Shown here: positions 18,673 to 57,887 of the stretch, in pieces | Layout: every line of letters starts with the position of its first letter | How positions within the stretch are numbered: position 1 is the first letter of the stretch | Source of the DNA: Candidatus Multivorans sp. | Lineage (GTDB): Bacteria > Acidobacteriota > Thermoanaerobaculia > Multivoradales > Multivoraceae | Assembly (NCBI GenBank): GCA_965224025.1 | Contig: OZ245033.1 | Coordinates: forward strand, 4,096,001 to 4,160,000 | Length of the DNA stretch: 64,000 bases | Direction: 5' to 3' | Translations under genes and position numbers: made by a program | The notes under the pieces: model-generated | The model's database searches: none | What the model was told of the DNA's origin: nothing | Seen by the model: only the letters and a program-made list of their open reading frames with translations

Positions 18673-18786
18673 CGTTCTACTCTCCAGCTTTGGCACACTC
18701 CAACTACGGCCGCCGGACGGCGGAACCACGATCTCTGGTACGCGAACTTGCGGAGGGAGTTTAGCAGCAGCCCGCCGAAGTCCCGG

Positions 18787-27255: not shown

Positions 27256-27265
27256 GCGGCAGCTC

Positions 27266-28192
27266 GTGCCCGAATCCCGCCCGACCGACGCTCCTCCCGG
27301 CCTTTGCCAGACCGGCCCCGCCCCGCTGGTCATCAAGGCCGGCGGCGGCAAGTCGCTGGACCTCGACGCGATCGCCGCCGACGTCTGCGAACTGTCGAAC
27401 TCCGGCCACGCGGTGGTTCTCGTGCACGGCGGCGCCGAGACGACCAACGAGGTCGCCGAGCAGTTGGGGCATCCGCCGCGGTTCGTGACCAGCGAGAGCG
27501 GCTACAGCAGCCGCCGCACCGACCGGCGCACGCTCGAGATCTTCGAGATGGTCTACTGCGGGCTGCTGAACAAGCGCTGGGTGGAGCTGCTGCAGCGTCA
27601 GGGCATCCGCGCGGTCGGGCTGAGCGGCCTCGACGGCCGCCTGTTCGAGGGCCGGCGCAAGGACAAGCTCCGCATCCGGCTCGGCGCCCGCCGTCTCGTG
27701 CTGCGCGACGACTGGACGGGCACGGTCGACCGGGTCAACGCGGACCTGCTGCGTCTGCTGCTCGGCGGCGGCTACCTGCCCGTACTGACCCCGCCGGGGG
27801 CGTCCTACGACGGAGAGGCGGTCAACGTCGACGGCGACCGCGCGGCCGCCGCCGTGGCCGCGGCCCTGGGTGCAAAGGCGTTGGTCTACCTGTCCGGCGC
27901 CCCGGGCCTGCTCGCCGACTTTCCCGACGAGGCCTCGCTGATCTCGCGCCTCGACGTCGCTCGCGACGACCTGACCGGCCCTGAAGCCCATGCCGGGCTC
28001 GAACCGCTGATGGAGGCGGCCCAGGACCGGATGAAGAAGAAGGTGCTGGGCGCCGCGGAAGCGCTGCGCGGGGGCCTGGAGCGAGTGATCTTCGCCGACG
28101 GACGCACCGGGCGTCCCGTCCAGGCCGCCCTCGACGGCGCCGGCACCCACGTCGTCGTCAGGCCGGCGAATCGGGAGGAGTACACGTCATGA
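27266..28192 (+). CDS. lysZ: [LysW]-aminoadipate kinase (ArgB-like)
   Basis: IKAGG, VHGG, SGYSSRRTD, NVDGDRAA and MKKKV. Confidence 0.9.
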   Translation: MPESRPTDAPPGLCQTGPAPLVIKAGGGKSLDLDAIAADVCELSNSGHAVVLVHGGAETTNEVAEQLGHPPRFVTSESGYSSRRTDRRTLEIFEMVYCGLLNKRWVELLQRQGIRAVGLSGLDGRLFEGRRKDKLRIRLGARRLVLRDDWTGTVDRVNADLLRLLLGGGYLPVLTPPGASYDGEAVNVDGDRAAAAVAAALGAKALVYLSGAPGLLADFPDEASLISRLDVARDDLTGPEAHAGLEPLMEAAQDRMKKKVLGAAEALRGGLERVIFADGRTGRPVQAALDGAGTHVVVRPANREEYTS

Positions 28193-30632: not shown

Positions 30633-30636
30633 CTGC

Positions 30637-32196
30637 GTGGTTCCCCGTGCACCACGCGTCGATCTGATCGCTTTCGGCGTCAGCGCCGGGCTGATCGCCC
30701 TCGTCTGCATTCCGCTCGCGCTGTCGCCCCAGACGGGCGGCGCCCTGGTCGTCCGCGCCTACGAGGCGCTGACGGAGCGCTTCGGACTGCTCTACCAGTG
30801 GGCGACGCTTCTGGTCACGGTGTTCCTGCTCTGGCTGGCCTTCAGCCGTCACGGAGCGAGACGGCTCGGGGACGAGGACAGCCGGCCGGACTTCAACATC
30901 TTCAGTTGGATGGCCATGCTGTTCTGCGCCGGCATCGGCGCCGGGCTGCTCTACTGGTCGACCATCGAGTGGGTCACCTACCTCGATGCGCCACCCTTCG
31001 GCCTGGCGCCCAACTCCACTGAGGCCATCGAGTGGGCGGCGACCTACGGCATCTTCCACTGGGGCATCTCGGCCTGGGCGCTGTACTGCTTCCCGGCAGT
31101 GGCGATCGCCATCCCCTACTACCGCCAGCACGCCCCGGCCCTGCGCCTGAGCACCGGCCTGCACGCCCTGATCGGCCGCGAGGGGTACGACCGCGCCCCC
31201 GCCCGCGTCGTCGACGTCCTGTTCATCCTCGCGCTCGTCGGCGGCACGGGGACGTCGCTCGGGCTCGGCACCCCGATGGTCGCCGCCTGCGTGAGCGAGG
31301 TCTTCGGCATCGAACAGAGCTTCGGACTCCAGGTCGGGATCCTCGTCGTCTGCGTCACTCTGTTCGCGGTCAGCGTCTACCTGGGACTCGAACGCGGCAT
31401 CAAACCCCTCTCCGACGGCTCCGTCATCGCGGCGATCGTCCTGCTGGCCTTCGTGCTGATGGTCGGCCCGACCAACTTCCTGCTGCGCACGGGCACGAAC
31501 TCGATCGGCCTGATGATCGAGAACTTCATCCGGCTCAACACATGGACCGACCCGGTGGCCAGGACGGGGTTCATCGAGGACATGACCGTCTTCTACTGGG
31601 CGTGGTGGATCGCCTACGGACCCTTCATGGGCCTCTTCGTGACCCGCATCTCGCGCGGCCGGACGGTGCGGCAGTTGATCTTCGGGATGCTGATCCTGGG
31701 TACCCTGGGCTGCGCCGTCTTCTACGGCGTCCTTGGCAACTACAGCCTGCACCTGGACCTGTCGGGGGCTCTACCGGTGCGCGAGATCGCCCAGGCTGCA
31801 GGAAACGAGAACGCGATCGCACAGACGATCGGCTTCCTGCCGCTCGGTACCGCGGCGCTCGCGATCTTCGCGCTCGTGGCCATCGTCTTCATCGCCACGA
31901 CCTACGACTCCGCTTCCTACTGCTTGGCCGCGTCGGCGACCCGCAACCTGACGGAAGGCACCCATCCCGCCCGCTGGCACCGCCTGTTCTGGGCCGTTGC
32001 CGTCGGCGTACTGCCGATCACGCTGATGTTCATCGGCCAGGAGGGCGGCAACGATCAACTGCGCGTGATCCAGTCCGCCACCCTGGTCGTCTCCCTGCCG
32101 CTGCTGATCGTGGGAGTGCTGATGGCGATCTCCCTGCTGCGGTCGCTCAGATCGGAAGAGGAACCCGTGGACGACGAGCCGGAAGACGGCGCCTGA
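30637..32196 (+). CDS. BCCT family (betaine/carnitine/choline) transporter
   Basis: WMAMLFCAGIG, FHWGISAW, FYWAWW and RISRGRT; about 12 TMs. Confidence 0.9.
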   Translation: MVPRAPRVDLIAFGVSAGLIALVCIPLALSPQTGGALVVRAYEALTERFGLLYQWATLLVTVFLLWLAFSRHGARRLGDEDSRPDFNIFSWMAMLFCAGIGAGLLYWSTIEWVTYLDAPPFGLAPNSTEAIEWAATYGIFHWGISAWALYCFPAVAIAIPYYRQHAPALRLSTGLHALIGREGYDRAPARVVDVLFILALVGGTGTSLGLGTPMVAACVSEVFGIEQSFGLQVGILVVCVTLFAVSVYLGLERGIKPLSDGSVIAAIVLLAFVLMVGPTNFLLRTGTNSIGLMIENFIRLNTWTDPVARTGFIEDMTVFYWAWWIAYGPFMGLFVTRISRGRTVRQLIFGMLILGTLGCAVFYGVLGNYSLHLDLSGALPVREIAQAAGNENAIAQTIGFLPLGTAALAIFALVAIVFIATTYDSASYCLAASATRNLTEGTHPARWHRLFWAVAVGVLPITLMFIGQEGGNDQLRVIQSATLVVSLPLLIVGVLMAISLLRSLRSEEEPVDDEPEDGA

Positions 32197-32218: not shown

Positions 32219-32986
32219 TCAGCGGCCGTCGCCCGTGGCGAGGGCCCCTTCGAGTTCTCCGAGCAGCCCCTCCAGCTCGCCCAGCGCAGCCTCCCAGTCG
32301 CTCCAGTGGAAGGCGTGACCGGACTCGATCGCCTCCTCCCAGACCCGGTTCGCCTCGAACAAGGCATCGGCGGCCTCATGCTGATCCGACGGATCCTGTA
32401 CTCGCGGAATGTCTCGCGACACCCTGGCGCGGGCGCTCCGCAGAGCCCGCATCCGCGCCAGCAGTTGGCCGCCCTTCAAGAGCGCCTCCTGGCCTGACGT
32501 TCCGGCCTCCCGGTGGTCGGCTTCGGGACCGTGGCAGCGGTTGCAGCGCGCCTGCAACCCGCCCTCGCCGAGCGACTGCCCGGCCACGCTGCCATGGCAG
32601 GTCCGGCAGGTGGGAGCAGCGCGGACCTTTCGTTCGAAGAGCGCGAAGTGCGTACTCTGCCGCAGGGCCAGGTACTGGGCGTCGTGGCAGCGGCCGCAGG
32701 TCCGGGGCAGGTTCCACTGGTGGGTCGGACTCTTCGGGTGGCCGCTGTTCAGCACCCCCTTGTGCGCGCGGAGCTGAACGAAGGTCGTGCTGTTGCCGCC
32801 GTGACAGTCCGCACAGGAGACCCCGGCCCCAGCGTGCGCCGAGTTCCGCCATTGGCGCAGATGGAACTCCTCCGTCTCCTCGAGTTCCTGCGCCGCATGG
32901 CAGTCGGCGCACGGATCCTGCGCCCAGGCGCCGGCCGCGAACGCGGTCATCGCCAGCAGGAGAAGCGTGGAGCGAGCCGGACCCAT
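32219..32986 (-). CDS. Periplasmic multiheme c-type cytochrome (5 CxxCH)
   Basis: Signal peptide; CADCH, CADCH, CGRCH, CRTCH and CNRCH. Confidence 0.82.
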   Translation of the reverse strand: MGPARSTLLLLAMTAFAAGAWAQDPCADCHAAQELEETEEFHLRQWRNSAHAGAGVSCADCHGGNSTTFVQLRAHKGVLNSGHPKSPTHQWNLPRTCGRCHDAQYLALRQSTHFALFERKVRAAPTCRTCHGSVAGQSLGEGGLQARCNRCHGPEADHREAGTSGQEALLKGGQLLARMRALRSARARVSRDIPRVQDPSDQHEAADALFEANRVWEEAIESGHAFHWSDWEAALGELEGLLGELEGALATGDGR

Positions 32987-33028
32987 GCCCGTCAGACTAC
33001 CAATGCCGGGCCCGGTGCGGCACCGGGT

Positions 33029-34723
33029 TCATCTCCACCGGAACTCGGGTTCGAGGAACACGTCGCGGTCACCGCCCTCCGGGATCTCGGGCAACTCCAG
33101 CCGGTAGTAGTTCAGCGGAATCGCGCCGTACCAGTACCGGTGGAGGGCGACCCTGCGCGGCCGCTCCACGACGAAGCTCACCGCCTCGCCGACGCCCATC
33201 GCGACCGGCACGAGTTCCACCGTCAGGCCGGCCAGGGGCACCGGCGACCCGATCAGCAGCTCGCCGTCCGCCCCCGGCCGGTAGCGGATGCCGTCGTCTC
33301 CGTGAGGCCGGACGCCGCTGCCGATCAGCCGTACGCGGAGGTCGCCGTGCTGGACATCCCGCGGCGCCGAAGTCAGGTGGATCTGCGACGTTTCCAGCGG
33401 CAGGAGCCGCTTCGCTGCCGGCGAGACGTAGCGCAAACGGCGGGCGCCGGTATCCGCGTCGATCTCCACCGGAAAGGAGGCCGCCGACCACCACAGTGGC
33501 GCCACGAAGAGAGCGGCCATCACGGACGAGGCAACGAGCCAGCGTCGGGGCGGCGGCCGCTCGACGAGGAACCAGCACACGGGATAGAAGGGCAGGAACC
33601 AGCGGTTCGCGATCGCCCCCGCGCCGCCGTAGAAGTTGTACGGACTCTTGATCAGAAAGGCGAGGAGTCCCAGGGCAACGCCTGCGAGCAGCCACCGGCG
33701 CCGCGAACCGGGTCGGAGACAGGCGCAGGCGAGTACCAGGGGCAGGAAGTAGGGCACGATGCCGATGCTCCTCCCGAGCAAGGCATAGACGACGTTGTGT
33801 CCGAGCAGCGCGGCGTCGAAAGAGGGCAGCAAGAAGCCCTCCCGGACCCAGGAGGCGTCGCCTCGCACGGCCAGCAACTCCTGCCACTCTTCCCGCTCGA
33901 AGTCGATGTCGGGATAGCCGGTCGCGCTGCTGAATCCCTGCCGTGCGCCGACGTACGGGCTCCACGCGCCACCGCTCGCGGCGTGAAACCACGCCGAGCC
34001 GGCCAGAAGCACCAGGGCGCCGCCGAGGACGATCGCCGAGGCCCTTCGCCCCCACGCCTGCCGCAGGCTCGGAGCCGCCGCCAGCAGCACCGCGGCCAAG
34101 ACGGCCAGGTAGAACGGTCGTCCGGCGCCGGCCGTTGCCAGCAGAGCACCGCCCGCCACCAGGCGTCCGGGCGGCGGCCGCCTGCCCTCGAACCAGGGGT
34201 CGAGGCAGCAGAGCCCGAGCGCCGTCGCGACCAGATAGAACAGGTCGGCATGAACCCAGAACACGTGACCGAAAGTGACCGAGAAGAAGAGCAGAAACGC
34301 GGCCACCAGCGGTCCATCGGCGCCCACGCGCTGCAGCAGAAGGCACTCGAGCAGGAGGGCGGCCAGGATAAGCAGAAAGAGGTTCGCGACGATCGGCCCC
34401 CGCTCCGGCGCGAGGCGTACGAAGGGCGAAAGAAAGAGCGAGTAGAAGACCGGTTTGGCGTACACCAGCGTGCCGCCGCCGTCCGTGCTCTGCAGGATCA
34501 GCGGATCCGGGACCTTGCCGGTGGTCTCCAGATAGCGCCGGTAGTCCGACGCCTCGTACCGGCGATCGAAGTCGAAGGCAAGGCTCTGGGCCTGCATCGA
34601 GTACACGCCTTCGTCGCCCACGGTGTAGGGCCAGTCCCCCGGGTCGAATACCGCGGCCGCCAGCACGAGGGCGAGAACCAGGGTCCACAGCAGCGCTCTT
34701 TGCCAAGTCAGCCGGATGGGCAC
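33029..34723 (-). CDS. Polytopic membrane protein, GT-C/ArnT-like (start uncertain)
   Basis: N-terminal TM followed by GDEGVY (DE motif), about 10 TMs and a soluble C-terminal domain. Confidence 0.6.
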   Translation of the reverse strand: MPIRLTWQRALLWTLVLALVLAAAVFDPGDWPYTVGDEGVYSMQAQSLAFDFDRRYEASDYRRYLETTGKVPDPLILQSTDGGGTLVYAKPVFYSLFLSPFVRLAPERGPIVANLFLLILAALLLECLLLQRVGADGPLVAAFLLFFSVTFGHVFWVHADLFYLVATALGLCCLDPWFEGRRPPPGRLVAGGALLATAGAGRPFYLAVLAAVLLAAAPSLRQAWGRRASAIVLGGALVLLAGSAWFHAASGGAWSPYVGARQGFSSATGYPDIDFEREEWQELLAVRGDASWVREGFLLPSFDAALLGHNVVYALLGRSIGIVPYFLPLVLACACLRPGSRRRWLLAGVALGLLAFLIKSPYNFYGGAGAIANRWFLPFYPVCWFLVERPPPRRWLVASSVMAALFVAPLWWSAASFPVEIDADTGARRLRYVSPAAKRLLPLETSQIHLTSAPRDVQHGDLRVRLIGSGVRPHGDDGIRYRPGADGELLIGSPVPLAGLTVELVPVAMGVGEAVSFVVERPRRVALHRYWYGAIPLNYYRLELPEIPEGGDRDVFLEPEFRWR

Positions 34724-34776
34724 CGGCCATCGTCGTCCTCCCCGGCTTGCGGCACTGCCCATCCCGTCCTCGGACG

Positions 34777-34869: not shown

Positions 34870-37434
34870 CTAGAAGGAACCTCCGAAGCCGTAGGTCAGC
34901 CGCGAGTACCAGAACGCGCCGTTGAAGCCCCACGGCGTCCGTTCGCTGTACAGTTCGCCGACGCTCAACGCGAACGAGTTCTCCTCGGGGTACGCGTCGA
35001 GCACGTTCGTGCCGCCGAACACCCAACGCAGACCGTCGCGCAGCCTGAAGCCAATCTCCAGGTCGAGCGTGTTCTCGCCGGGGTAGCTCTCGTTGTTGTC
35101 CCGGTCGAACCAGCGATCGAAGTAGTTCAGGCGAGCCAGATAACGCACCCGGTCGCTGGCCGAGCGGTGCTTCGCGGTGACGCTGTACCGGCTCTCCGGC
35201 AGCGCCTGCTCGAGATCCCGGATCCGGCGCGGGCCGAACGTGACCGCGTTGGAGCGGACGACCTCCGTTTGGGTCAGATTGGCCAGCGCCGCGAAGCTGG
35301 TGCGGCCGCCCATCGACTCCGGCGTCACCGTGAGCACCAGGTCGGCGCCCACCGACTCCGTGTCGAAGTCGTTGGCGAAGAACCGGAAGTTCCTCAGGTT
35401 CGCGGCGCTTGTCACCCCCTCGGCGACCAGGGTGGCCGCCTCGTCCGGCGTCAACTGGAAGTTCTGAGTAACGGCGATCCGATCCTCCACGTCGATGCGG
35501 AAGACATCGAAGGTCATTGCGAACGGTCCGTTCTCGACCACCGCGCCGACCGCGAAGTTGAGCGAGGTCTCCGGTTCCAGAGGCTCGCCGCCCCTCAGCC
35601 TGGCCACCGCGGAAGTGGACGGAATGGTGCCGTTGTTGACCAGGTCCTGAACGCTCGTGTCGAACTGCGTCTGGACGTTGAACGCGTTCTGCTGCCCCGG
35701 CGTCGGCGCCCGAAAGCCACTGCTCAGACTGCTGCGCAACGCCATCCGCTCCGTCACCTGATAGCGGCCCGCGATCTTGCTGTTCATCGTGGTGCCGAAG
35801 TCGTCGAAGTTCTCGAACCGGACCGCGGCGCCCATCGCCCAGCGGCCGTCCGGGCCGTTGATCTCCACGTCGCCGTAGGCCGCGTAGTTCGAGCGGCCCC
35901 ACTTGCCGGCCGCGATATTGCTGAAGCCGGGAAAGCCGTTCGACCCGGAGCTGAAACCCTGGCTGGCCAGCGGACCGATCCGGTACGACTCGGGCTGGCC
36001 CGTGCCGATCTCGAACTCCTCATCCCTCCACTCCAACCCGCCGGCCACGTCGACGCGCTCCGACACCGAGTAGGTCAGGTCGTAGTTGAGGTTCGTCTCC
36101 CTCTGGGTGTAGGTCCCGAGCGCGAAACTGGTCGGCGTGTCCGGACCGAGCGACGCGTTCACCGTGTTGCTGATAAAGTGGTCGACGGAGTTCTCTCCCG
36201 TGCTGACGCTCAGATCCCAACCGATGCCGCCGGATGTGGCCCCGCGGAGACCGGCCACGATGCCCATGTCCTCGTTGTCGCCGCCGAAGTTCGGCGTGAA
36301 GCCGCCGGGGAAGAGCTCCTGGTAGGAGAAGCAGTTCGGATCGTCGATCACGCGGCGAAGCCCGATCGGATCCGGCACATGGTTGGTCACGGCGACGGTC
36401 GGGCAGCCGGCGGAGCCGTCGAGCACGCCGTCCCGGGCGTCGAGCAGATCGCCGACCAGCAGCGTGCTGCCGCCGTCGTTGCTGAACACGCCGCCGCGGG
36501 TGTTCGGATTGCGGAAGAAGAAGCCGCCGTTCACCGTCTTGCTGGCGTAGTTCGCGTGGCCGTAGAACTGGCGACCGCTGGTCTCGAACAGGTGACCGAA
36601 GTTCAGGAACAGCTTCATGTCGTCCGAGACCTCCGGCGAACCCCAGATCTGCGCCTTCGGCTGACGGACGTGCGTGTTGCCGGCGGCGATCAGGTTCGCC
36701 GCGTCCCGGCGCTGGATCGACCGGTCCGTCGGATCCGTGCTTCCATACTCCACGCTGAGGTTGAAGAAGCCGTTCCCGCCCAGCGGCAGACCGAGGTTCG
36801 CGGCGGCCGTGAACAGGTCGCCGTCGCCCTCGCCGTACGAACCGCTGCGAATCTCGACGGAACCGCCCGAACTCGCGTCCTTGAGCAGGAAGTTCATCAC
36901 GCCGGCGATCGCGTCGGATCCGTACTGCGCCGATGCGCCGTCGCGGAGCACCTCGACCTGGCGCAGCGCGATGGCCGGGATGACAGCCAGGTCCGGTCCC
37001 TGGGCGCCGATCGAAACCGCGTCTCCGTGCCAGTGAATCACCGCGGCGCGGTGCCTGCGCTTGCCGTTGACCAGCACCAGGGTGTGGTCGGGCGCCAGGT
37101 TGCGGAGGTAGGCCGGCCGCACGATCGACGACGCGTCGCTTATCGGCTGCATGCTCACGTTGAAGGAGGGCGCGAGGTTCCGCACCAGATTCGCCACGTC
37201 CGTGTCGCCCTGGGTCAGGAATTCCTCACCGCTAAGCACGTCCACGGGCACCATGGACTCGGCGACCGAACGGCCCTCGGTCCGGCTACCGACGACGACA
37301 ATTTCCTCGCCGAAGGAAGCCCCAGCCACGGTCTGATCCTCTTCGGACGCCGAATCCTCTTGGGCCGCGCCTGGGGCGACCGCAAAGAGCAGGACCAATA
37401 CGTAGATCGAGCGCACGAACTTGTCCCATTGCAT
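34870..37434 (-). CDS. TonB-dependent receptor (paralog 1)
   Basis: Signal peptide, EEIVVVGSR TonB box, LVNGKRRH, VEVLRDGASAQYGSDAIAGV and C-terminal F. Confidence 0.92.
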   Translation of the reverse strand: MQWDKFVRSIYVLVLLFAVAPGAAQEDSASEEDQTVAGASFGEEIVVVGSRTEGRSVAESMVPVDVLSGEEFLTQGDTDVANLVRNLAPSFNVSMQPISDASSIVRPAYLRNLAPDHTLVLVNGKRRHRAAVIHWHGDAVSIGAQGPDLAVIPAIALRQVEVLRDGASAQYGSDAIAGVMNFLLKDASSGGSVEIRSGSYGEGDGDLFTAAANLGLPLGGNGFFNLSVEYGSTDPTDRSIQRRDAANLIAAGNTHVRQPKAQIWGSPEVSDDMKLFLNFGHLFETSGRQFYGHANYASKTVNGGFFFRNPNTRGGVFSNDGGSTLLVGDLLDARDGVLDGSAGCPTVAVTNHVPDPIGLRRVIDDPNCFSYQELFPGGFTPNFGGDNEDMGIVAGLRGATSGGIGWDLSVSTGENSVDHFISNTVNASLGPDTPTSFALGTYTQRETNLNYDLTYSVSERVDVAGGLEWRDEEFEIGTGQPESYRIGPLASQGFSSGSNGFPGFSNIAAGKWGRSNYAAYGDVEINGPDGRWAMGAAVRFENFDDFGTTMNSKIAGRYQVTERMALRSSLSSGFRAPTPGQQNAFNVQTQFDTSVQDLVNNGTIPSTSAVARLRGGEPLEPETSLNFAVGAVVENGPFAMTFDVFRIDVEDRIAVTQNFQLTPDEAATLVAEGVTSAANLRNFRFFANDFDTESVGADLVLTVTPESMGGRTSFAALANLTQTEVVRSNAVTFGPRRIRDLEQALPESRYSVTAKHRSASDRVRYLARLNYFDRWFDRDNNESYPGENTLDLEIGFRLRDGLRWVFGGTNVLDAYPEENSFALSVGELYSERTPWGFNGAFWYSRLTYGFGGSF

Positions 37435-37553
37435 CAGGCAGTTTCCTCGTATCTGTTGACGGTGATGATCAGGGGCCTGCGATCCTCCTGTCTGTTGCCG
37501 GCCAGACGGCAGCAGCAGGAGGGCGCGCATCTCGCCACCCGTAGAGTCCGCGT

Positions 37554-37582
37554 AGCCTACACGAGCCGGATACACTCGGCAA
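37554..37582 (-). promoter_or_regulatory. Putative sigma70 promoter of TonB receptor 1
   Basis: Minus strand TTGCCG, 17-nt spacer, TAGGCT; followed by a ~110-nt UTR containing a CCTCCTG/CAGGAGG stem. Confidence 0.45.
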
Positions 37583-38359: not shown

Positions 38360-41077
38360 ATGAAAAGACTTGAACCCGGCCTTTCCATCCTGCTGCCCCT
38401 CGTTTTCGTCCTGCTACCGCTCTGCTTGGGCGCGCCGCTTCTGGCGCAGGAAGCTGAGAGTCAGGACGAAGGCGAACAGGCTGAAGAAACGCCCGAGTTC
38501 GGCGAAACGATCGTCGTCGTCGGCACCCGCACCGAGGGCCGCACCGTTACCCAGTCACCGGTCGCGGTCGACGTGATTCCCGCGACCGAGTTGATGAGTC
38601 AGGGCGACAACGACCTGATCAACCGGCTACGGACCGTCGTCCCCTCCTACAACGTCGGGACCCAGCCCATCAGCGACGCGGCGACGCTCGTCCGGCCCGT
38701 CAATCTCCGCGGTCTGGCTCCGGACCACACCCTGATCCTCGTCAATGGCAAGCGCCGCCATCGCGCCGCGGTCATCGCCTGGCTCGGCAACGGCATCTCG
38801 GACGGCGCCCAGGGTCCCGACGTCTCCGTCATCCCATCCATCGCGCTGAGGCAAGTCGAGGTGCTGCGTGACGGCGCTTCGGCGCAGTACGGCTCCGACG
38901 CGATCGCCGGCGTGATCAACTTCCAGCTCAAGGACGCGAGTTCCGGCGGCAGCATCGAGATCCGCTCGGGTCAGTTCCAGGACAGCAACCCCGGTTCCGA
39001 CGGCGGCTTCGGCGGCCAGTACACGTTCGCCGGCGACAAGGGCATCTCGTACGCCGTCTCGGCCAACCTCGGCATGCCGATGGGCGAGAACGGCTTCTTC
39101 AACCTGAGCATGGAGTACGGCGCCGCCGATCCGACCAGCCGCAGCGTGCAGTTCACAAACGCACAGAGAGCCTTCGACGCCGGCAGCTCACGAATTCGAA
39201 CCCCCGCGCAGGTCTGGGGTTCGCCCCTGGTCGAGGACGACATCAAGCTGTTCGCCAACTTCGGCAGCCTGTTCTCGAACGGCACTCAGTTCTACGGCCA
39301 CGCCAACTACGCCACGCGCACGACGACCGGCGGCTTCTACTTCCGTAACCCGTTCGGGAGTAACGCGAGAACCGGCGTCTTCAGCCCCGGGGGGGCGGAC
39401 CAGGGCAACTTCCTCCTCGTCGGAGACCGGGAATGGGCGCGAACCGGCGTGTCGCGGGCCGGCGGCTGCCCTGCAATTCCGGTCATCGACTACGCCCCCG
39501 ACCCTGCGGCGCTGGCGGCGGTCGAAGCGGACCCGAACTGCTTTACGCTCTACAACCGCTTCCCCGGAGGCTTCACGCCCCAGTTCGGCGGCGACCTGAC
39601 GGACTCGTCGATCGTCGCCGGCCTCCGCGGCTATCTCGACAGCGGCATGACGTGGGACATCAGCGTCAACGTCGGCAACAGCGAGGTCGACCAGTTCATC
39701 TACAACACGGTGAACGCCTCGCTCGGCTACGACACGCCAACCTCGTTCAGGCCGGGCATCTACGAACAGACCGACACGAACGTCAACTTCGACATCACCT
39801 ACCCGGTGCGTGACAACGTGAGCCTCGCCGCCGGCGTGGAGTGGCGGAACGAGGAGTTCCGGATCGGCGCCGGCGACCCGGCTTCGTGGGAGATCGGTCC
39901 CTACGCCGCCCAAGGTTTCAGCTCCGGTTCCAACGGCTTCAACGGCTACCGCGCCGATGTCACGGCCGGCACATGGGACCGCGCCAACGTCGCGGTCTAC
40001 GGCGATGTCGAGTTCGAAGATCCGGACGAGATGTGGACTTTGACCACGGCGCTCCGCGTGGAGGACTTCGACGGCTTCGGGAACACGATCAACGCCAAGG
40101 TCTCCGGCCGCCGGGTCGTGTCCGATGCTGTCTCGCTGCGCGCCTCCGTCAGCACGGGTTTCCGCGCGCCGACGCCCGGCCAGCAGAACGCATTCAACGT
40201 GACCACGGCATTCGACCCCGAGACGGGCGGGCTGTCGAATAGCGGCACCGTTCCCTCGATCTCGCAGCCGGCGGCTCTGAGGGGCGGCGAGGCTCTGCAG
40301 CCCGAGGAGGCGGTGAACTTCGCCGCCGGCCTGGTGGTCGGCAAGGGCGCGTTCACGTTCACCGCCGACATCTTCCACATCGACATGGACGACCGGATCG
40401 CATTGTCCGAGACCTTCCGGCAGTGCGCCATCCTCAGGGAGCCGGAACCGGGCTGCGTGACCGACGCCGAAATTGAGACCCTGCTCGCGGGCGGCTTCGT
40501 CGAAGCGAGGAACCTGAAGAACTTCCGGTTCTTCGTCAACGACTTCGCCACCTCAACCCAGGGTCTCGACCTGGTCGGCACCTGGGCGCCGCCGGCGCTC
40601 GGCGGCGACACGGCGTTCAGCCTCGTGTTCAACTACACCGACACGGAGGTCACGGAGTTCAATCCCGCTACAGTCGGCCCCTTCCGCATCGCCACCATCG
40701 AACGCGGACTGCCGGAGACCCGCTGGAACATCGCGATGAACCACAGCGCCGATCGCTGGAGCCTGCTCACGCGCCTGAACTGGTACGACGGCTGGTGGGA
40801 CAGCGAGGATGCGCAGAACCTCCTCGGCAGAAGCAACGCAAGGATGTTCCCCGACTACAGCGGTGAGTTCCTGCTCGACGTCGAACTCGGCATCCCGCTG
40901 CCGAACGACACGGCGATCACCATCGGCGTGCAGAACCTGCTGAACACCTATCCGGACGACAATCCCGGCGCCTATTCCGGCGGTGTCGGCAACCAGTACG
41001 GGCAGTTCTCGCCGTCCGGCTTCAACGGCGCCTACTACTACGTCCGATTCAACTACGCCTGGGGTTCTAGCTTCTAG
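38360..41077 (+). CDS. TonB-dependent receptor (paralog 2)
   Basis: Signal peptide, ETIVVVGTR, the same plug motifs as paralog 1 and C-terminal F; AGGAG RBS. Confidence 0.92.
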   Translation: MKRLEPGLSILLPLVFVLLPLCLGAPLLAQEAESQDEGEQAEETPEFGETIVVVGTRTEGRTVTQSPVAVDVIPATELMSQGDNDLINRLRTVVPSYNVGTQPISDAATLVRPVNLRGLAPDHTLILVNGKRRHRAAVIAWLGNGISDGAQGPDVSVIPSIALRQVEVLRDGASAQYGSDAIAGVINFQLKDASSGGSIEIRSGQFQDSNPGSDGGFGGQYTFAGDKGISYAVSANLGMPMGENGFFNLSMEYGAADPTSRSVQFTNAQRAFDAGSSRIRTPAQVWGSPLVEDDIKLFANFGSLFSNGTQFYGHANYATRTTTGGFYFRNPFGSNARTGVFSPGGADQGNFLLVGDREWARTGVSRAGGCPAIPVIDYAPDPAALAAVEADPNCFTLYNRFPGGFTPQFGGDLTDSSIVAGLRGYLDSGMTWDISVNVGNSEVDQFIYNTVNASLGYDTPTSFRPGIYEQTDTNVNFDITYPVRDNVSLAAGVEWRNEEFRIGAGDPASWEIGPYAAQGFSSGSNGFNGYRADVTAGTWDRANVAVYGDVEFEDPDEMWTLTTALRVEDFDGFGNTINAKVSGRRVVSDAVSLRASVSTGFRAPTPGQQNAFNVTTAFDPETGGLSNSGTVPSISQPAALRGGEALQPEEAVNFAAGLVVGKGAFTFTADIFHIDMDDRIALSETFRQCAILREPEPGCVTDAEIETLLAGGFVEARNLKNFRFFVNDFATSTQGLDLVGTWAPPALGGDTAFSLVFNYTDTEVTEFNPATVGPFRIATIERGLPETRWNIAMNHSADRWSLLTRLNWYDGWWDSEDAQNLLGRSNARMFPDYSGEFLLDVELGIPLPNDTAITIGVQNLLNTYPDDNPGAYSGGVGNQYGQFSPSGFNGAYYYVRFNYAWGSSF

Positions 41078-45552: not shown

Positions 45553-48500
45553 CTACCCGACGTCGACCGGCCTGACCACGAACAGCAGATCGCCCTGGTT
45601 CACGACCTGGCCGTTCGCCGCGTTGACCCGCATCACTTCGAACCGGCTGTCCCGAGCGAACAAGTCGCCGCCAGCGTCGATCGACGACAGGGACACCGGG
45701 CGGAACAACTTCATCGCCTCGATCAGGCACAGGGTCTTTCCCGTGTCCAGAAGGTCCCCGACTCGCACGAAAGGCGGATCGCTGGGCGAGGCGGAGGCAT
45801 AGAACAGGCCGCCGGAGGGCGCCCCGACCCTTAGTTCGTCACTGCCCTCGATCTCGATCTCGGCGCGATCCATCGTCGCGGAGACGCCGGCGGAACGCTC
45901 GACTTCGCGAACCAGCTCGTCGGCGGAGGTACGGGCCAGGAAGCCCGGTAAGTACCGCGTGTCGTAGTCGCCGGTACGGAACTGCTCGTCGTCCAGCACG
46001 CGGCGAAGGAGGGGGAGATTGGTGCAAACGCCATCGATCGTGACCTGGTCGAGGTAGGAGCGCATGCGGGCGATGGTGTCGACGCGATCCTTGCCGTGGC
46101 AGACGATCTGCGCCACCAGACTGTCGTAGTACGGCGAAACCACCGTTCCCGTATCGATCGCCGCCAACACGTCGATGTCCGGCCGCTGCGGGAACTCGCA
46201 GCGGTTCACCGTCCCCGGCGACGGCAGCAGGTCGATCCCGTCCTCGGTTGCGACCACCCGTTCGGCGTTGATCCGGACCTCCATCGCGTAGCCGTCTTCG
46301 GCAACCGGCGGGCCTTTGATTCGCGACCCTCCGGCGATCTCGAACTGGGCCTTGACGATGTCCGTGCCGCTCGTGGCCTCGGTTACCGGGTGCTCCACCT
46401 GGAGACGGGTGTTCATCTCCATGAAGTAGAGCTTCTGCGCCTCCAAGTCGAAGATGAACTCAACCGTGCCCGCGCCCACGTAGCCGATCTTCCGCGCAAT
46501 CTCCCTTGCGGAGCGGAAGCTCTCCTCGCGCAGAGCCTCCGGCAGCGCGGTCGATCCCGATTCCTCGATCAGCTTCTGGTTGTTGCGCTGGACGCTGCAG
46601 TCGCGCAGGCCCAGAATGCTCACGGTCCCGTGCTGGTCGCACAGCACCTGCACCTCGACGTGGCGGAGCGAGACGACGCATTTCTCCAGGTAGCAGTCCG
46701 CGTTGCCGAAGCTGCTCTCGGCCTCGATCCGGATCTGGGCAAACGCCTCCCGGAAGTCCTCCGCCCGGTCGACCCGGCGAATGCCCTTGCCGCCGCCCCC
46801 GTGGACGGCCTTGAGCATGACCGGGAAACCGATCGATTCCGCCACCTCGAGCGCCGTGTCGGCATCGGTGAGGATGCCCTCGCTGCCTGGCACGACCGGC
46901 ACGCCGACCTGCACCGCCGTCTGGATCGCGTTCGACTTGTTGCCCATGCGCCGCATCGCTTCGCCGGTCGGTCCGACGAAGTTCAGGCCGTGGCCCCGGC
47001 ACAGGTCCGCGAACGAAGCGCTCTCGGACAGGAAACCGATTCCCGGATGGAGCGCGTCGACCTCTTCCCGCTCGGCGACACGGATCACCGAGTGGGCGTT
47101 CAGATAGCTCTCGTCGGGTGTGCTGCCGCCGATGCAGACCAGGGTGTCGCGCTCACGGAGCATCGCCGCCGCCGGCGACTCGACGTCTGGATCCGACTGC
47201 ACCAGGACCACCTCGATACCGGCGCGCTGGGCCACCCGCACCAGCTTGACCGCCGTGCAGCCCCGGGCATGGATGAGAGCCCGCCGCACCGGCCGCGGAG
47301 CGACCGCCGGCGCCGGCTCGACGGTTTCGGGCGCCCGCCGGCGCCGCCGTGCCGACAGGAACTCGACCCGCCGCTCCTCCTGCTGGAGCCGCAGGAGAAC
47401 ACCCTCGACCGTCTCCTCCGGTACCGGGATCTGCGAATCGACCTGGCGTAGCTGGTCGTCGAGGTCCTCGCCGAAGGGATGCTGCACGAGACCCTGCATC
47501 GCCCCTTCGACCTCGAACAGATAGTTCGACAGCGTCGAGGCCATGGGGAGGTGGGAAGGAACGACGATCTGCCCGGCGAACGGCATGTTCGTACCCGAGA
47601 AGTAGTAGGTCTGGACCAGCGGGTGGGTGACCAGGCTCGCCTGGGCGCCGCCCGTGCAGTCGCCGTAGCCGAAACAGATCACGGGCAGGTCGTTGTCGCG
47701 CACGAACCGGGTCAGCCGGTCGTTCACGATCGACATCGAAAACAGTGCGCCGGCGCCCTCCTTCGTCAGCATGCCGCCCGACGAGATGAAGCACACCACC
47801 GGCAGCCGTTCCTCGGCGCAGCGCAGCAGAAGTTTGCAGAACTTCTCGGCACTCGCCATGTCGAACGAGCCGGCCTGGAATGCCAGGTTGGAGACCATAA
47901 CGCCGACCCTGCTGCCGCCCGAACCGCCTTCGGCGTCACCCGCTCCGCCGGCCCTGATCCGGGCGAGGGCCGCCACCGTCCCGCACGGCGTCACTCCCTG
48001 TTCCAGCGCACGCTCGATCGACACGCGAAGCCCCGGGAAGCCCACCGGATCGGCGGTCATCCGGTCCGGTTCGATCTCCTGTACGTCGACGAAGAACCGG
48101 TCCAGGATGGCCCGTGGACGCCGCGGCGTCCTCCGCTTCTGTTCGGCGAGCACGTCCTCGAGCAGCATGTCGCGATAGGCTGCGTCAAGGCGGTTCCAAA
48201 AATCCTTGATGCCGATGTTGCGTGGGGAGATGCGGCCGTCGTAGGTGCGAATGCCCTGCTCGTCCTCGTAGAAGTTCGGCAGCAGACGCTCGAAGAGGAA
48301 CGTGACCAACCCGAACAGCGGCTCGGAGATGCGGGGCATCTGAAGCCGCTTCCACTCCGCCACGGACTTGAGCAGCCGGCCGCGGCGGGGGTGCCGCGAG
48401 AAGTGCCGCAGCCAGGAGCGGAACTGCCGCCGCAGCCTCGCCTCCGCCTCGTCGGCCGCCTCCGCCTCGAGTCCAGCCGTCAACTCGCGCAGCGCCGCGT

Positions 48501-50211
48501 TCAACGAGTGGCGCAGCAACAGGTGAACGGACTCGCGGGCGATCACGTTCTCCTGGCGGGCCTCGGCGGCAATCTCTCGCAGGTGCACGAAGATGTGATC
48601 GTAGAGCCGGTCGAAAGAGATGAAGTTCTCGCATTCGCGCCGGAACAGCCGCAGGAGTTGTGGTTGGAGGATCACGTCGAGAACGGTGAGATCCGGCGGA
48701 TCCGGAGCGGCGCCCTGCCGAGCTTCCGGATCCGTCTCGGCGACCCCCGCAGCGGAGGCGGCGCGCATCACGTCCAGCAGCCGACCGAAGTTGTCCTCGG
48801 CCGCGTCCTTCCACTGGTTGTAGAGGTGGAAACCGAACTCGAGCAGCAGTTCGGCTCGGGCGCGATTGAAGTGGTACTCGCGGCTGCCGAGCAGGAAGGA
48901 GGCGAGCCGACCCCGCCCCTCATGAAGCGAGTCGCGGGCCGCGGCGTACCGCTTGTACGTGCGGCTGAGGACATCGTCGTACCGCACGGCAAGCGGGTTC
49001 TCGAACCAGCGCTCGAAGGACAACCGGCGCTGCCGTTCCCGGCGCGCCCTGGCCGCCCCGGCCGGAACCTCGGCCGCCGCCAGACGACCGTAGCTGGGCA
49101 GGGTCGTCGAGGTAAGGCGGCGCCGGAGACCGAGATATCGCAGGTACCGAAAGGCGACGCCGAAGACGTTGACCTGCTCCGCCGGACTCCGCAGCCGCGA
49201 CAGGGGGGCGACTTCCTCGAGAGCCAACAGACTGCGGGAGGGGTCGACGTACCGCCGCGCGTTCAGGCGATAGTGCTCGAACACGGTCGGCTCGTCGCGC
49301 ACGAAGATCTTCGCCCGCTGTTCCACCACCGCGATCGACGAGGCCACCGCGGCCTCGAAACAGGCCAGCCGGTCGCCACCCTCACCCGGAACGAAGTCGA
49401 TCACTCCGTCGAGGTATCTCTGATCGAAAAGCTCGTACGCCGAGACGCCGACCGCCTTGGCGCACTCCTCCCAGGACAGGTCGTAGCGGCGCACGATGTT
49501 GGCCAGCCCGCGGGGCTGAATCGTGTTGAAGACGCCGTCACGCACCGCCAGCAGCACGTTCGTCGTGGCCAGAGGAATGGCGCCGCCCGAGTAGCCGTTG
49601 CCGAGCACGACGCCGATGGTCGGCGCGTGAAGCTGCGCCATCTCGGCGATCAACCGGGAAATAGCGTGAGCCTGGTTGCCGCGGTTCGCCATCTCGCCCG
49701 CGTCCGCTCCCGGCGTGTCCATCAGGGCGACGATGGGCAGGTTGCGGCCGGCGTACGACCGGATCACGTCCACCGCCAGACGGTGGTGCTCCGGCATCCA
49801 GACGCCGTTCTGCACCGAGCGCTCCTGCGCGAGAACGCCGAACCGGCGGCGCCAGCCCTCGATCTCGGTTTCGAACACGGCCGCGTAGAGGGGGCCGTGG
49901 CCGCGCTCCTCGACCAGTTCCCAACTGGTGGCGGCCAGGACCTCTCCGGCGCCAACCCGGACCGGGTCCTCGGCCGGCGCGACCGTGCGGCGGATGTACT
50001 CGTCGACCTCGAGGGCGGCAAGACTCTTGAGGGTCCGACGGATACGTCGGTCGGAGACCAGACCGGCGATGCGCCCGCCGGCGCCGGCGATTTGCGGATC
50101 ACGGGGCGCCGGAAATAGCGAGAACGCGCGCGCCCGCTGCTCCGCGTCGCGGAACAGGGGGTCTACCGCTCCTCGCGAAGGCTCCGCCTGACTCTGGAGC
50201 AGGATCGTCAT
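45553..50211 (-). CDS. Single-chain biotin-dependent acyl-CoA carboxylase (CTalpha-CTbeta-BC-BCCP)
   Basis: DTPGA/GYSGGA (AccA-like); FQAGS/SSGG/TGGAQAS/FAG (AccD-like); HPGIGFLSE/GGGGKG/EMNTRLQVEH (BC); IEAMK (biotinyl Lys). Confidence 0.85.
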   Translation of the reverse strand: MTILLQSQAEPSRGAVDPLFRDAEQRARAFSLFPAPRDPQIAGAGGRIAGLVSDRRIRRTLKSLAALEVDEYIRRTVAPAEDPVRVGAGEVLAATSWELVEERGHGPLYAAVFETEIEGWRRRFGVLAQERSVQNGVWMPEHHRLAVDVIRSYAGRNLPIVALMDTPGADAGEMANRGNQAHAISRLIAEMAQLHAPTIGVVLGNGYSGGAIPLATTNVLLAVRDGVFNTIQPRGLANIVRRYDLSWEECAKAVGVSAYELFDQRYLDGVIDFVPGEGGDRLACFEAAVASSIAVVEQRAKIFVRDEPTVFEHYRLNARRYVDPSRSLLALEEVAPLSRLRSPAEQVNVFGVAFRYLRYLGLRRRLTSTTLPSYGRLAAAEVPAGAARARRERQRRLSFERWFENPLAVRYDDVLSRTYKRYAAARDSLHEGRGRLASFLLGSREYHFNRARAELLLEFGFHLYNQWKDAAEDNFGRLLDVMRAASAAGVAETDPEARQGAAPDPPDLTVLDVILQPQLLRLFRRECENFISFDRLYDHIFVHLREIAAEARQENVIARESVHLLLRHSLNAALRELTAGLEAEAADEAEARLRRQFRSWLRHFSRHPRRGRLLKSVAEWKRLQMPRISEPLFGLVTFLFERLLPNFYEDEQGIRTYDGRISPRNIGIKDFWNRLDAAYRDMLLEDVLAEQKRRTPRRPRAILDRFFVDVQEIEPDRMTADPVGFPGLRVSIERALEQGVTPCGTVAALARIRAGGAGDAEGGSGGSRVGVMVSNLAFQAGSFDMASAEKFCKLLLRCAEERLPVVCFISSGGMLTKEGAGALFSMSIVNDRLTRFVRDNDLPVICFGYGDCTGGAQASLVTHPLVQTYYFSGTNMPFAGQIVVPSHLPMASTLSNYLFEVEGAMQGLVQHPFGEDLDDQLRQVDSQIPVPEETVEGVLLRLQQEERRVEFLSARRRRRAPETVEPAPAVAPRPVRRALIHARGCTAVKLVRVAQRAGIEVVLVQSDPDVESPAAAMLRERDTLVCIGGSTPDESYLNAHSVIRVAEREEVDALHPGIGFLSESASFADLCRGHGLNFVGPTGEAMRRMGNKSNAIQTAVQVGVPVVPGSEGILTDADTALEVAESIGFPVMLKAVHGGGGKGIRRVDRAEDFREAFAQIRIEAESSFGNADCYLEKCVVSLRHVEVQVLCDQHGTVSILGLRDCSVQRNNQKLIEESGSTALPEALREESFRSAREIARKIGYVGAGTVEFIFDLEAQKLYFMEMNTRLQVEHPVTEATSGTDIVKAQFEIAGGSRIKGPPVAEDGYAMEVRINAERVVATEDGIDLLPSPGTVNRCEFPQRPDIDVLAAIDTGTVVSPYYDSLVAQIVCHGKDRVDTIARMRSYLDQVTIDGVCTNLPLLRRVLDDEQFRTGDYDTRYLPGFLARTSADELVREVERSAGVSATMDRAEIEIEGSDELRVGAPSGGLFYASASPSDPPFVRVGDLLDTGKTLCLIEAMKLFRPVSLSSIDAGGDLFARDSRFEVMRVNAANGQVVNQGDLLFVVRPVDVG

Positions 50212-56060: not shown

Positions 56061-56304
56061 CCTGCGCGACCGAAACGAATCGGCCGGTTCCGTAGCGCCC
56101 GACGACGCTCGTTTCGAGGGGCGAATCGGGGCATTCCGCGCCGGTCACGTCGTGGTCAGAAACTGGTCAGGCCGATATCCGCTAGCGATTGCAAGAATGT
56201 CCTCCAAATCGAACCAGCCGGGGAATCCGACCAAAACCCCGGTTGTTTCCTTTCGTACACAAGGTCGGGTTCGTGCCCTAAAGGGGCAAGGTACGGATCC
56301 GATC

Positions 56305-56343
56305 GGCGCCGGGCGGAGCGAGCGTGTCGCACCGCCCGGCGCC
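56305..56343. terminator. Strong GC hairpin between convergent genes
   Basis: GGCGCCGGGCGG...CCGCCCGGCGCC 12-bp stem. Confidence 0.45.
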
Positions 56344-56430
56344 ACCTTTCCTATCCTCGACCGTGATGTCCGAGGAGTGCAGCGTGATCTCGGTGCGGCG
56401 CGGAGCCGGCGCCGGATCAAGCGCCGCGGC

Positions 56431-57327
56431 TCAGAGGAAGACGCATGTGGGGCACTCCCCCGCATCCTGAGCAAGCCTGCGGTCCGCTTCGCACTGGTAG
56501 ACGGGCTGCGCCGAACGTTCCGCCCGCTCATCGCCGCCCAGCATCACCTCCCGCTTCCACTCGTCGTCATCCGACCAGCGGAAGGGCAGCATCTTCACCG
56601 CCCCTGGCGTATCCAACTCCTGGAAGGCGGCGAGCGATGCGCCAACGATCTTCCTCTGCAGGCCGGCATCCAGCGGCTTGCCCGTCGTGTGACCCAACGG
56701 ATAGTCGAGAAACGCGGCGCGGGGCGGATTGACGGATCGCGTGATCGAGAGCGCCGAACTCATCGACAGGGTCGGAATGCCGTCCGCCTCGACGCGGCGC
56801 GCTGTCAGTCCCACGGACTGATGGCAGACCGGTCAGGTGGGGACCAGCAACGCCAGGTCGACCTGGTCCGCTACCAACCGGCGGCTGATCTCCGGCGCCA
56901 GAGTGTCCCGCACCCTGCGCGCCGAGTAGATGCCGCCCATGAACGCGTACGCGAGCGGCGACACGTCCCCGATCACGCCGTCCGCTGCCAGAGCGCGCAG
57001 GGTGTCGACGGGAAAGACGACGTTCGGGTCGATCCGGGCGTCCATCTGGTCGTAGGCAAAGTGGCTCGTCCGCAGTTCCGCGGCCGGCACACTGGCGTCG
57101 ATGACCCGCAGCGAGATGTCGTCGCGATGGTGGAAGGCGATCTGTCCCGTCCGGTACACGCCGCCCGACGCCACCAATCCGACCCGGCACTCCTCAAGCG
57201 GCTTCGCCAGCCGGGTCCAAGGCGGCGGGGCCTCGCTGCGAACCCATCGGTAGGGTCCGTGTCCCAGACTCGAGTAAAGGTCGCGTGTGCGGACGATGTG
57301 GTCGACCGGCGGTCTTCGTGTTCTCAT
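56431..57327 (-). CDS. GrdB/PrdB-like reductase selenoprotein (UGA=Sec at 56835-56833)
   Basis: Two same-frame ORFs joined across TGA read LLVPT-U-PVCHQSVGL..EADGIPT; family motifs KPLEECRVGLVASGG, DPNVVFP and PPRAAFLDYPLG. Confidence 0.82.
56805..56821 (-). promoter_or_regulatory. Candidate bacterial SECIS hairpin
   Basis: Minus strand UCAGUCC-GUG-GGACUGA; the apical loop starts with G, 18 nt after the UGA. Confidence 0.6.
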
Positions 57328-57401
57328 GCTCCCGATTCTGCCCTCTAGCAGCCCATGGCAGAAGTCGCGCTGCATTCGAGCGACGATAGGATGCCAGCCG
57401 C

Positions 57402-57887
57402 ATGAGCACCGAGAGCCGGCGACCGAGGGAGCGCGGTCCAAACCCTGAGGGCGGTCCCGAACCCGAACGGATCGACCGGACCGAGTCCGAGTGGCGCACC
57501 CGCCTCGCCGACGCCGAGTACCGCGTCCTGCGCAAGGAAGCGACCGAACCGGCCTTCACTTCGCCACTCAACGGCGAGCACCGGGAAGGCGTCTTCGTGT
57601 GCGCCGGGTGCGGCGCCGAACTGTTCGGGGCCGACTCGAAGTACGACAGCGGCACCGGCTGGCCGAGCTTCTCCGACTCGATGCCCGGCGCGGTCGAAAC
57701 GAAACGGGACTTCAAGCTGTTCGTGCCGCGCACCGAGTACCACTGCGCCCGCTGCGGCGGACACCAGGGGCACGTCTTCCGCGACGGTCCGGCGCCAACG
57801 GGCCTGCGCTACTGCAACAACGGCGTCGCCCTGCGCTTCCGCCCAACCGCGGAAGACGGCCGCCCGGCCAAGGATCCCGCCCCATGA
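57402..57887 (+). CDS. msrB: Peptide-methionine (R)-S-oxide reductase
   Basis: ATEPAF, CAGC, SGTGWPSF, RTEYHCARCGGHQGHVF and RYCNN. Confidence 0.95.
   Translation: MSTESRRPRERGPNPEGGPEPERIDRTESEWRTRLADAEYRVLRKEATEPAFTSPLNGEHREGVFVCAGCGAELFGADSKYDSGTGWPSFSDSMPGAVETKRDFKLFVPRTEYHCARCGGHQGHVFRDGPAPTGLRYCNNGVALRFRPTAEDGRPAKDPAP

Follow-up and report, generated by a model that had tools for sequence, protein, structure and literature searches.

A 64,000-nt stretch of DNA from Candidatus Multivorans sp. (Acidobacteriota, Thermoanaerobaculia, Candidatus Multivoraceae), corresponding to positions 4,096,001 to 4,160,000 of contig OZ245033.1 and referred to at its full length as the window in the rest of the text, carries on its minus strand a PrdB-like gene interrupted in frame by a single UGA codon. 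We conclude that this gene is almost certainly a genuine selenoprotein gene of the GrdB/PrdB superfamily, in which the UGA is read as selenocysteine (Sec, U), and that its product probably acts as a PrdA-independent, stand-alone U-x-x-C selenol/thiol oxidoreductase. A preliminary description, made from the letters of the DNA alone, had singled out two same-frame open reading frames (ORFs) parted by one TGA and had predicted that read-through would give a 298-aa protein with a VPT-U-PVCH motif and a CPTC motif near its end. Both observations were borne out by inspection and translation of the window. ORFs 56431..56814 (127 aa) and 56833..57441 (202 aa) lie on the minus strand and share one frame, and between ATG 57327 and the stop at 56433-56431 this frame is broken only by TGA 56835-56833, at residue 165. 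With this TGA translated as U, the protein contains a single internal U in the context DLALLVPT-U-PVCHQSVGLTARR, the downstream part beginning with PVCHQSVGL, and ends in GECPTCVFL followed by the TGA stop, the two terminal cysteines being C292 and C295. The start codon is backed by relatives, in which MRTRRPPVDH or MGTRRPPVDH is found at the same place, 164 codons ahead of the TGA. The features of the locus, including the selenocysteine insertion sequence (SECIS), are as follows (GC3, G+C content at third codon positions).

56431..57327, minus strand: PrdB-like selenoprotein gene, whole (ATG 57327, Sec codon 165, stop TGA 56433-56431; 298 residues)
56833..56835, minus strand: in-frame UGA read as Sec (U165); TGA at the aligned codon in 80/80 loci, Cys in relatives
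56824..56835, minus strand: U165-P-V-C168 redox motif, following strand 158-162 and leading into helix 166-181 in the AlphaFold2 model
56800..56826, minus strand: SECIS element; GUG loop on an upper stem of 7 bp (8 bp in most relatives), above a lower stem UGC/GCG
56443..56454, minus strand: C292-P-T-C295 motif, within a 47-residue C-terminal extension absent from true PrdB
56152..57348, plus strand: antisense shadow ORF of 398 aa; GC3 0.67, no Pfam family; not a gene
57402..57887, plus strand: msrB (methionine-R-sulfoxide reductase; PF01641, E 1e-43), divergent, 74 bp from the gene start

To place the TGA among relatives, one genome per species was scanned, which yielded 488 stretches encoding a relative. 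The best 80 (L001-L080) were taken; being the most similar to the query, they sample the clade of Sec-type genes (Sec clade) and not the whole family. All 80 carry TGA at the aligned codon, in the context VP(V/A)-U-PVCH, and they come from at least eight phyla. Across 50 distant loci (L030-L080 except L062, truncated at the end of its contig), identity to the window protein is 59% before the UGA and 60% after it. The two halves of the window gene have GC3 values of 0.85 and 0.82, respectively, most of the window's real genes lying between 0.83 and 0.93.

Predicted proteins bear the mark of the same codon. Among the 120 best database relatives, 78 stop exactly before the U position, most of them with 164 residues, while the others show Cys (32), Thr (6), Trp (1) or a variant motif (3) there. 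A family profile built from 121 sequences and searched against 1.84 billion proteins matched 3330 cluster representatives at E ≤ 0.001, 1392 at E ≤ 1e-10 and 198 at E ≤ 1e-30. In the best 150 of these matches, N-terminal pieces end at profile position 163-164 and C-terminal pieces begin at 167-172; these are the two halves of the gene as emitted by gene callers. The view that automatic annotation splits this selenoprotein in two thus stands, and the relatives do not present the halves as separate genes, given that the same TGA and the same hairpin recur in 80/80 loci. For annotation this means that the window gene, like at least 80 relatives at species level, is broken off at the UGA. Gene callers can pick instead the antisense ORF 56152-57348, which overlaps the selenoprotein gene from end to end and exceeds each half in length, as a naive ORF picker did here, and the protein is thereby lost from proteomes.

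Just past the UGA lies the hairpin announced in the preliminary description, a 7-bp stem with a G-starting loop 18 nt after the codon. It consists of UCAGUCC (56821-56815), the loop GUG (56814-56812) and GGACUGA (56811-56805), and begins 11 nt past the UGA. According to a review of 2026, a bacterial SECIS has a loop of 3-9 nt starting with G followed by G or U, an upper stem of 4-16 bp, a UGA-to-loop distance of 16-37 nt and a minimum free energy of at most -7.5 kcal/mol (PMC13188914); the hairpin, with its 3-nt loop starting with GU, its stem of 7-8 bp, its distance of 18 nt and its folding energy of -16.4 kcal/mol, lies within each of these ranges. A search of Rfam, which covered the whole window at gathering scores and the surrounding 141-nt region at E ≤ 10, returned no SECIS family and only chance matches.

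The hairpin was then compared across 81 aligned rows (74 of them distinct), one from the window and 80 from the related loci. The aligned structure has eight pairs in its upper stem and three in its lower stem, parted by a single mismatched base on either side, and a loop of 3 nt. Of the 814 stem cells, 97.1% pair, compared to 24.6-40.2% once the 3′ side is displaced by one, two or three columns. Two compensatory pairs occur (U-A to C-G in 7 rows, G-C to A-U in 2 rows), and the covariation score was reached by none of 500 shuffles. Since the pairing of the stem partly reflects the conserved peptide HQSVGL(I/V), we examined synonymous sites in the window and the 50 distant loci, omitting the 29 Acidobacteriota loci lest one clade dominate. 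Third-position entropy is 0.14 bits at S171, 0.40 bits at G173 and 0.00 bits at L174, all in the stem, and 1.47 bits at V172, whose third base is the last base of the loop; for 64 other conserved codons with four- or six-fold degeneracy, the mean is 1.49 bits and the minimum 0.83 bits. As judged from these alignments, the hairpin is under selection as RNA, and its conservation inside the coding sequence explains why neither the peptide HQSVGL(I/V) nor the wobble bases of its codons vary freely.

Profile comparisons place the protein in the GrdB/PrdB superfamily. PF07355 (GRDB) matches residues 42-164 with 43.8 bits (gathering cut-off 22, E 2.6e-11), and this match, which covers positions 221-347 of a 347-position profile, ends where the profile ends, indicating that the Pfam model itself stops at the Sec. 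The best NCBIfam match is TIGR04483 (PrdB), which extends over both sides of the UGA (residues 33-252, E 1.9e-46) with 158.4 bits, below its equivalog cut-off of 300; under NCBI's own rule, the protein is not a PrdB. TIGR01918 reaches 62.2 bits against a cut-off of 65.45 and covers residues 82-236 with only the last third of its 431 positions. The family profile search also returned a bona fide PrdB, P0160 (241 aa; 453.2 bits on TIGR04483), which aligns with the window protein by BLASTP over 217 residues at 32% identity and with zero gaps. In this alignment residues 151 and 154 of P0160 face U165 and C168, respectively, in agreement with the earlier claim that the U-x-x-C occupies the GrdB/PrdB Sec position. 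Residue 151 is the selenocysteine of Clostridioides difficile PrdB, reported to act as a nucleophile, its U151C variant being inactive (PMC11229817). U165 therefore has its homologue in the catalytic Sec151 of PrdB, the D-proline reductase selenoprotein.

The window protein thus shares with PrdB of C. difficile and C. sticklandii the fold family, the U-x-x-C motif and a SECIS within the coding sequence just past the UGA. Unlike these, its gene has no adjacent prdA, prdC or prdH, and the protein has about 14-30 extra residues at the N-terminus and 47 at the C-terminus, the latter with a QYQ..EDR motif and a second CxxC. The Sec clade also differs from PrdB in that it occurs in non-clostridial lineages, which are largely aerobic or facultative. 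With GrdB, GrdF, GrdH and the fluoroacetate reductase FarB, the protein has in common the catalytic C-terminal region up to and beyond the Sec; these GrdB/PrdB family enzymes are reported to cleave reductively a C-X bond beside a carboxyl group (PMC13188914, PMC10838667). In contrast to the window protein, GrdB, GrdF and GrdH are about 430 residues long owing to a long N-terminal part, and GrdB-type proteins operate with GrdE-derived pyruvoyl subunits and GrdA.

The C-terminal extension sets the Sec clade apart. P0160 ends where residue 251 of the window protein aligns, and the window protein runs on for 47 residues, so that the CxxC tail is extra relative to true PrdB. This extension carries a conserved ..P(Q/V)YQ.E.DR.. 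motif followed by C292-P-T-C295, and a CxxC past the QYQ..EDR motif is present in 76/80 Sec-type loci and in 0/41 full-length relatives of Cys, Thr or other type. In the 121-row alignment, the four positions are distributed as follows.

U165, Cys or Sec: 80/80 Sec-clade rows, 35/41 other rows
C168, Cys: 80/80 Sec-clade rows, 41/41 other rows
C292, Cys: 77/80 Sec-clade rows, 2/41 other rows
C295, Cys: 76/80 Sec-clade rows, 0/41 other rows

Besides these four, no cysteine is found in more than 56/80 Sec-clade rows. C168, H169 and Q170 are invariant in 121/121 rows, as are many polar residues, including Y58, Q62, D70, R86, H89, S135, R177, E180, R203, D208 and R271. AlphaFold2, run with the same alignment, predicts a single compact alpha/beta domain with a mean predicted local distance difference test (pLDDT) score of 95.5 and a predicted template modelling (pTM) score of 0.94. 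In this model strand 158-162 precedes U165 and helix 166-181 follows it; the tail is well defined, with pLDDT 93 for residues 291-299 and a short strand formed by 295-296. A search of the PDB by sequence gave no match at E ≤ 1.

A quick maximum-likelihood tree was computed with IQ-TREE. All 80 Sec rows fall on one side of a single branch (Shimodaira-Hasegawa-like approximate likelihood-ratio test, 86). Within the Sec clade the tree mixes phyla, for instance Gammaproteobacteria with records titled Spirochaetota and Myxococcota, thereby suggesting lateral spread; several record titles ('uncultured Enterobacteriaceae') appear unreliable as taxonomy.

In the wider family, Thr takes the place of Sec in a clade made up of P0003, P0004, P0008, P0009, P0019 and P0031 (about 46-52% identical), which read VP(V/I)-T-PVCHQ. 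The Thr clade retains the peptide HQ(S/T)(V/A)GL, which encodes the SECIS stem in the Sec forms, and a change of TGA to a Thr codon takes two base changes. Longer fused relatives were not found by a word-index search, which is weak evidence, and an exhaustive profile search then found a few. The fusions among P0139 (805 aa), P0136, P0253 and P0164 involve AMP-binding domains (acyl-CoA-synthetase-like), one protein kinase and a helix-turn-helix (HTH) domain. The AMP-binding and kinase fusions belong to a Cys-type sister subfamily with the motif VPNCPVCHQ; no motif of this type was found in the HTH fusion.

The preliminary description had further stated that the gene is divergent from msrB and that the window holds no grdA, grdE or prdA partner. 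The first statement holds, msrB lying 74 bp from the start of the gene. The other neighbours in the window are a carboxylesterase, a small membrane ORF, a myo-inositol oxygenase, a DcuC-type carrier and an ATP-binding cassette (ABC) ATPase. The divergent msrB is present in 29/29 Acidobacteriota loci (L001-L029) and in 0/51 other loci. Loci L001-L029 (71-92% identical) keep the gene order of the window, the closest of them, at 91-92% identity, being Candidatus Multivorans chromosomes. For the partner search, ORFs were called heuristically in the window and at the 80 loci, and the resulting 1417 were clustered; 42 cluster representatives were scanned at E ≤ 1e-5, and 131 single neighbours of L030-L080 at E ≤ 1e-12, the latter being those outside annotated clusters among the 192 nearest ORFs (two per side, at least 100 aa). 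No family whose name refers to glycine reductase, proline reductase or GrdA was found in the 43 ORFs of the window, the 42 representatives or the 131 single neighbours, which supports the idea of a missing partner at the level of the gene neighbourhood. Around the 51 non-Acidobacteriota loci no cluster widely accompanies the gene, the commonest annotated neighbour being an enoyl-CoA hydratase in 11 loci. Genes for acyl-CoA dehydrogenase, CoA-transferase III, short-chain dehydrogenase/reductase and MaoC recur nearby; these families are abundant in such genomes and we draw no conclusion from them.

Several further arrangements were seen around single loci. In L039 an AMP-binding gene lies two ORFs upstream of the Sec-clade gene. 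AMP-binding fusions and acyl-CoA neighbours offer a possible lead to carboxylic-acid substrates, which is not to be taken as evidence for the Sec clade. Seven Binatota-type loci (L044, L045, L046, L053, L055, L058 and L063) have a Nuo51-like FMN subunit and a 538-aa ORF of NuoG/molybdopterin type just upstream on the same strand; an alpha subunit of formate dehydrogenase would be expected to be longer, and here too a Sec codon may have truncated the ORF. Six loci (L036, L044, L055, L071, L076 and L077) share a conserved ORF of some 102 aa (MALYLDEVWLKDP...) that matches no Pfam family. In four of them it lies downstream on the opposite strand, directly so in L055, L076 and L077 and at 2.4 kb in L071; in L036 and L044 its distance from the gene is about 5 kb. 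A glutaredoxin gene adjoins it in L076.

We propose that the UGA is decoded by SelB and Sec-tRNA through the hairpin and that the enzyme would act without a PrdA-type pyruvoyl subunit. The U165 selenolate would attack the substrate, which could be an oxidised sulfur or selenium species or, as in the relatives, a C-X bond beside a carboxyl group, and C168 would resolve the adduct to give a selenenylsulfide. A putatively docked C292-x-x-C295 dithiol, reduced by a donor of thioredoxin or glutaredoxin type, would then pass on electrons and restore the active site; we put forward this relay by the tail only tentatively. In the Acidobacteriota lineage, msrB and the selenoprotein gene would be co-regulated from the 74-bp divergent control region that they share, an arrangement that would fit a role in the repair of oxidative damage. 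Carriers of the Sec clade include Acidobacteriota, Binatota, Gammaproteobacteria, Myxococcota, Chloroflexota and Tectimicrobiota. A bolder and rather doubtful extension is that the Sec clade represents a selenoenzyme widespread among aerobic and facultative bacteria and independent of PrdA, with a four-(seleno)cysteine centre and chemistry new for the GrdB/PrdB fold. Such chemistry might be a reductive C-X cleavage or a repair reaction, driven by thioredoxin and needing no pyruvoyl cofactor, or might involve a metal bound by the selenolate. If this were true, a selenoprotein family that ranks among the commonest of the oxic ocean would long have carried a wrong label, 'proline reductase'.

That label has a history. 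Genes named 'proline reductase PrdB' have been counted among the selenoproteins of oxic ocean metagenomes since 2005 (PMC1088965, PMC2398784). A survey of the Sargasso Sea listed a UxxC family under this name with 42 Sec genes and 1 Cys gene (PMC1088965), and the Global Ocean Sampling (GOS) survey of 38 samples counted 235 Sec and 110 Cys homologues (PMC2398784). A 'proline reductase' selenoprotein was also reported in Anaeromyxobacter and Geobacter uraniireducens (PMC1794560), and reviews of 2022 and 2026 carry a single 'D-proline reductase' entry under TIGR04483 (PMC9312934, PMC13188914). Like the window protein, the family of the two ocean surveys belongs to pfam07355, has a UxxC and counts more Sec than Cys forms, and it is described as abundant in the oxic surface ocean. 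In the portions of the surveys at hand, the D-proline reductase function is accepted and neither a missing PrdA nor a C-terminal CxxC is discussed (PMC1088965, PMC2398784); the GOS paper does not mention PrdA (PMC2398784). As judged from the survey tables and not from sequences, the catalogued ocean 'PrdB' genes most likely include the present Sec clade. A literature search on PrdB-like and GrdB-like selenoprotein homologues found nothing about this clade, and one on 'Candidatus Multivorans' found no publication. The gene had initially been called a hidden orphan, a term that overstates its novelty, as UxxC 'PrdB' genes appear in the catalogues from 2005 on (PMC1088965, PMC2398784). What may be new is the recognition of a clade without neighbouring PrdA that fails the PrdB model and bears a second conserved CxxC. 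The characterised relatives need a pyruvoyl partner, and none lies near these genes. A common selenoprotein of non-fermenting bacteria would go under a borrowed name and make a clear target for a first biochemical or structural study, for which the conserved C-terminal CxxC provides a concrete and testable hypothesis.

A number of observations weigh against our interpretation, either as regards the selenoprotein or as regards its independent function. The 40-nt fold of the hairpin (-16.4 kcal/mol) has a z score of -1.78 and was matched by 11 of 200 shuffles, while the 81-nt fold has a z score of -2.23 and was matched by 4 of 200; taken alone, in G+C-rich DNA, the hairpin is not beyond chance, and it is the comparison among relatives that lifts it far above. 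None of selA, selB, selD and the gene for tRNA-Sec lies within the 64-kb window, and tRNA-Sec was not found in loci L001-L060; we infer Sec decoding in this organism. The characterised members of the superfamily pair with a subunit of GrdE/PrdA type, as reported for prdA-prdB (PMC11229817) and likewise for grdB-grdE and farB-farE (PMC10838667). Our negative result concerns the gene neighbourhood, and by its nature would be compatible with a PrdA-like partner elsewhere in these genomes. Thr occupies the Sec position in 6 relatives, and a nucleophile there is hence not universal in the wider family. Since one branch separates all Sec rows, the association of Sec with the tail amounts to one event and has no statistical weight. 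Foldseek against the PDB gave no match at E ≤ 0.001, the best TM score being about 0.3, and there is hence no mechanism to borrow. Finally, the linkage to msrB is seen only in a single clade of family rank and could reflect a gene order passed on by descent.

Three other explanations were considered. Two pairs of cysteines, each with x-x spacing, are the usual composition of a four-ligand metal site. U165, C168, C292 and C295 might therefore jointly bind a metal (a structural zinc, a redox-active iron or another selenolate-ligated centre) in place of forming a dithiol/selenol relay. Precisely these four positions are conserved as (seleno)cysteines in the Sec clade, and the tail is modelled as ordered, with its short strand at 295-296. 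However, the Cys- and Thr-type relatives keep the core without the tail cysteines (0/41), and the homologous Sec of PrdB is described as a nucleophile (PMC11229817), which makes a metal site unlikely.

The protein might instead be an ordinary subunit PrdB of D-proline reductase, its partners PrdA, PrdC and PrdH being encoded elsewhere in the genome. Its top NCBIfam match and its gapless 32% identity to a true PrdB, with Sec opposite U151, speak in favour of this, as does the label 'D-proline reductase (dithiol) PrdB' that JGI gives to relatives, and the published catalogues class such genes as proline reductase (PMC1088965, PMC2398784, PMC1794560). Nevertheless, the score of 158.4 bits stays far from the equivalog cut-off of 300, no PrdA-type gene was seen in the window or, at the 51 phylogenetically spread loci, within two called ORFs to either side, and true PrdB stops at the equivalent of residue 251, which leaves the 47-residue CxxC tail as an addition. 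The carriers, moreover, are Acidobacteriota, Binatota, Gammaproteobacteria, Tectimicrobiota and others, phyla that are not known as Stickland fermenters. All in all, an ordinary PrdB appears quite improbable.

Lastly, that the TGA is a true stop, whether in a pseudogene, between two small genes or through a sequencing error, is practically excluded: the window lacks Sec machinery, the hairpin by itself is not significant against shuffles and the gene's own terminator is likewise TGA, but the identical TGA recurs in 80/80 loci from independent assemblies, the downstream half is conserved like the upstream half and has gene-like GC3, the hairpin shows covariation and frozen synonymous sites, Cys occupies the same column in relatives, and the two-part protein is modelled as one domain (pLDDT 95.5). 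A PrdA-independent selenol/thiol oxidoreductase, as proposed above, is the reading that we retain.

We also looked in the window for other places where a TGA parts two same-frame stretches that both have gene-like GC3. This gave 11 candidates, only one other of which is long. It lies at TGA 33031-33029 (32219-34762, minus strand) and joins a 577-aa membrane protein to a 255-aa cytochrome c7-like protein; because the downstream ORF begins 14 codons later with its own signal peptide, these are two genes and not a selenoprotein. The remaining candidates are shadow frames or gene ends.

Elsewhere in the window, a single ORF of 1552 residues (45553-50211, minus strand) combines the carboxyltransferase domains ACCA and Carboxyl_trans with those of a biotin carboxylase (N, ATP-grasp and C). 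The C-terminal part has an AMK motif and is presumably a biotinyl carrier, and the whole looks like a fully fused acyl-CoA carboxylase. On the plus strand, 25954-32196 holds genes for a semialdehyde dehydrogenase, an amino-acid kinase, a class-III aminotransferase and an M20 peptidase, which we take to be an ArgC/B/D/E- or LysY/Z/J/K-like set, followed by a betaine/carnitine/choline transporter (BCCT). Two divergent genes for TonB-dependent receptors (34870-37575, minus strand, and 38360-41077, plus strand) flank a 266-aa ORF with no Pfam family. An 831-aa protein encoded at 16234-18729 (minus strand) combines DUF1592, DUF1588, DUF1587, DUF1585 and DUF1595, the planctomycete-type PSD/PSCyt set, here in an acidobacterial genome.

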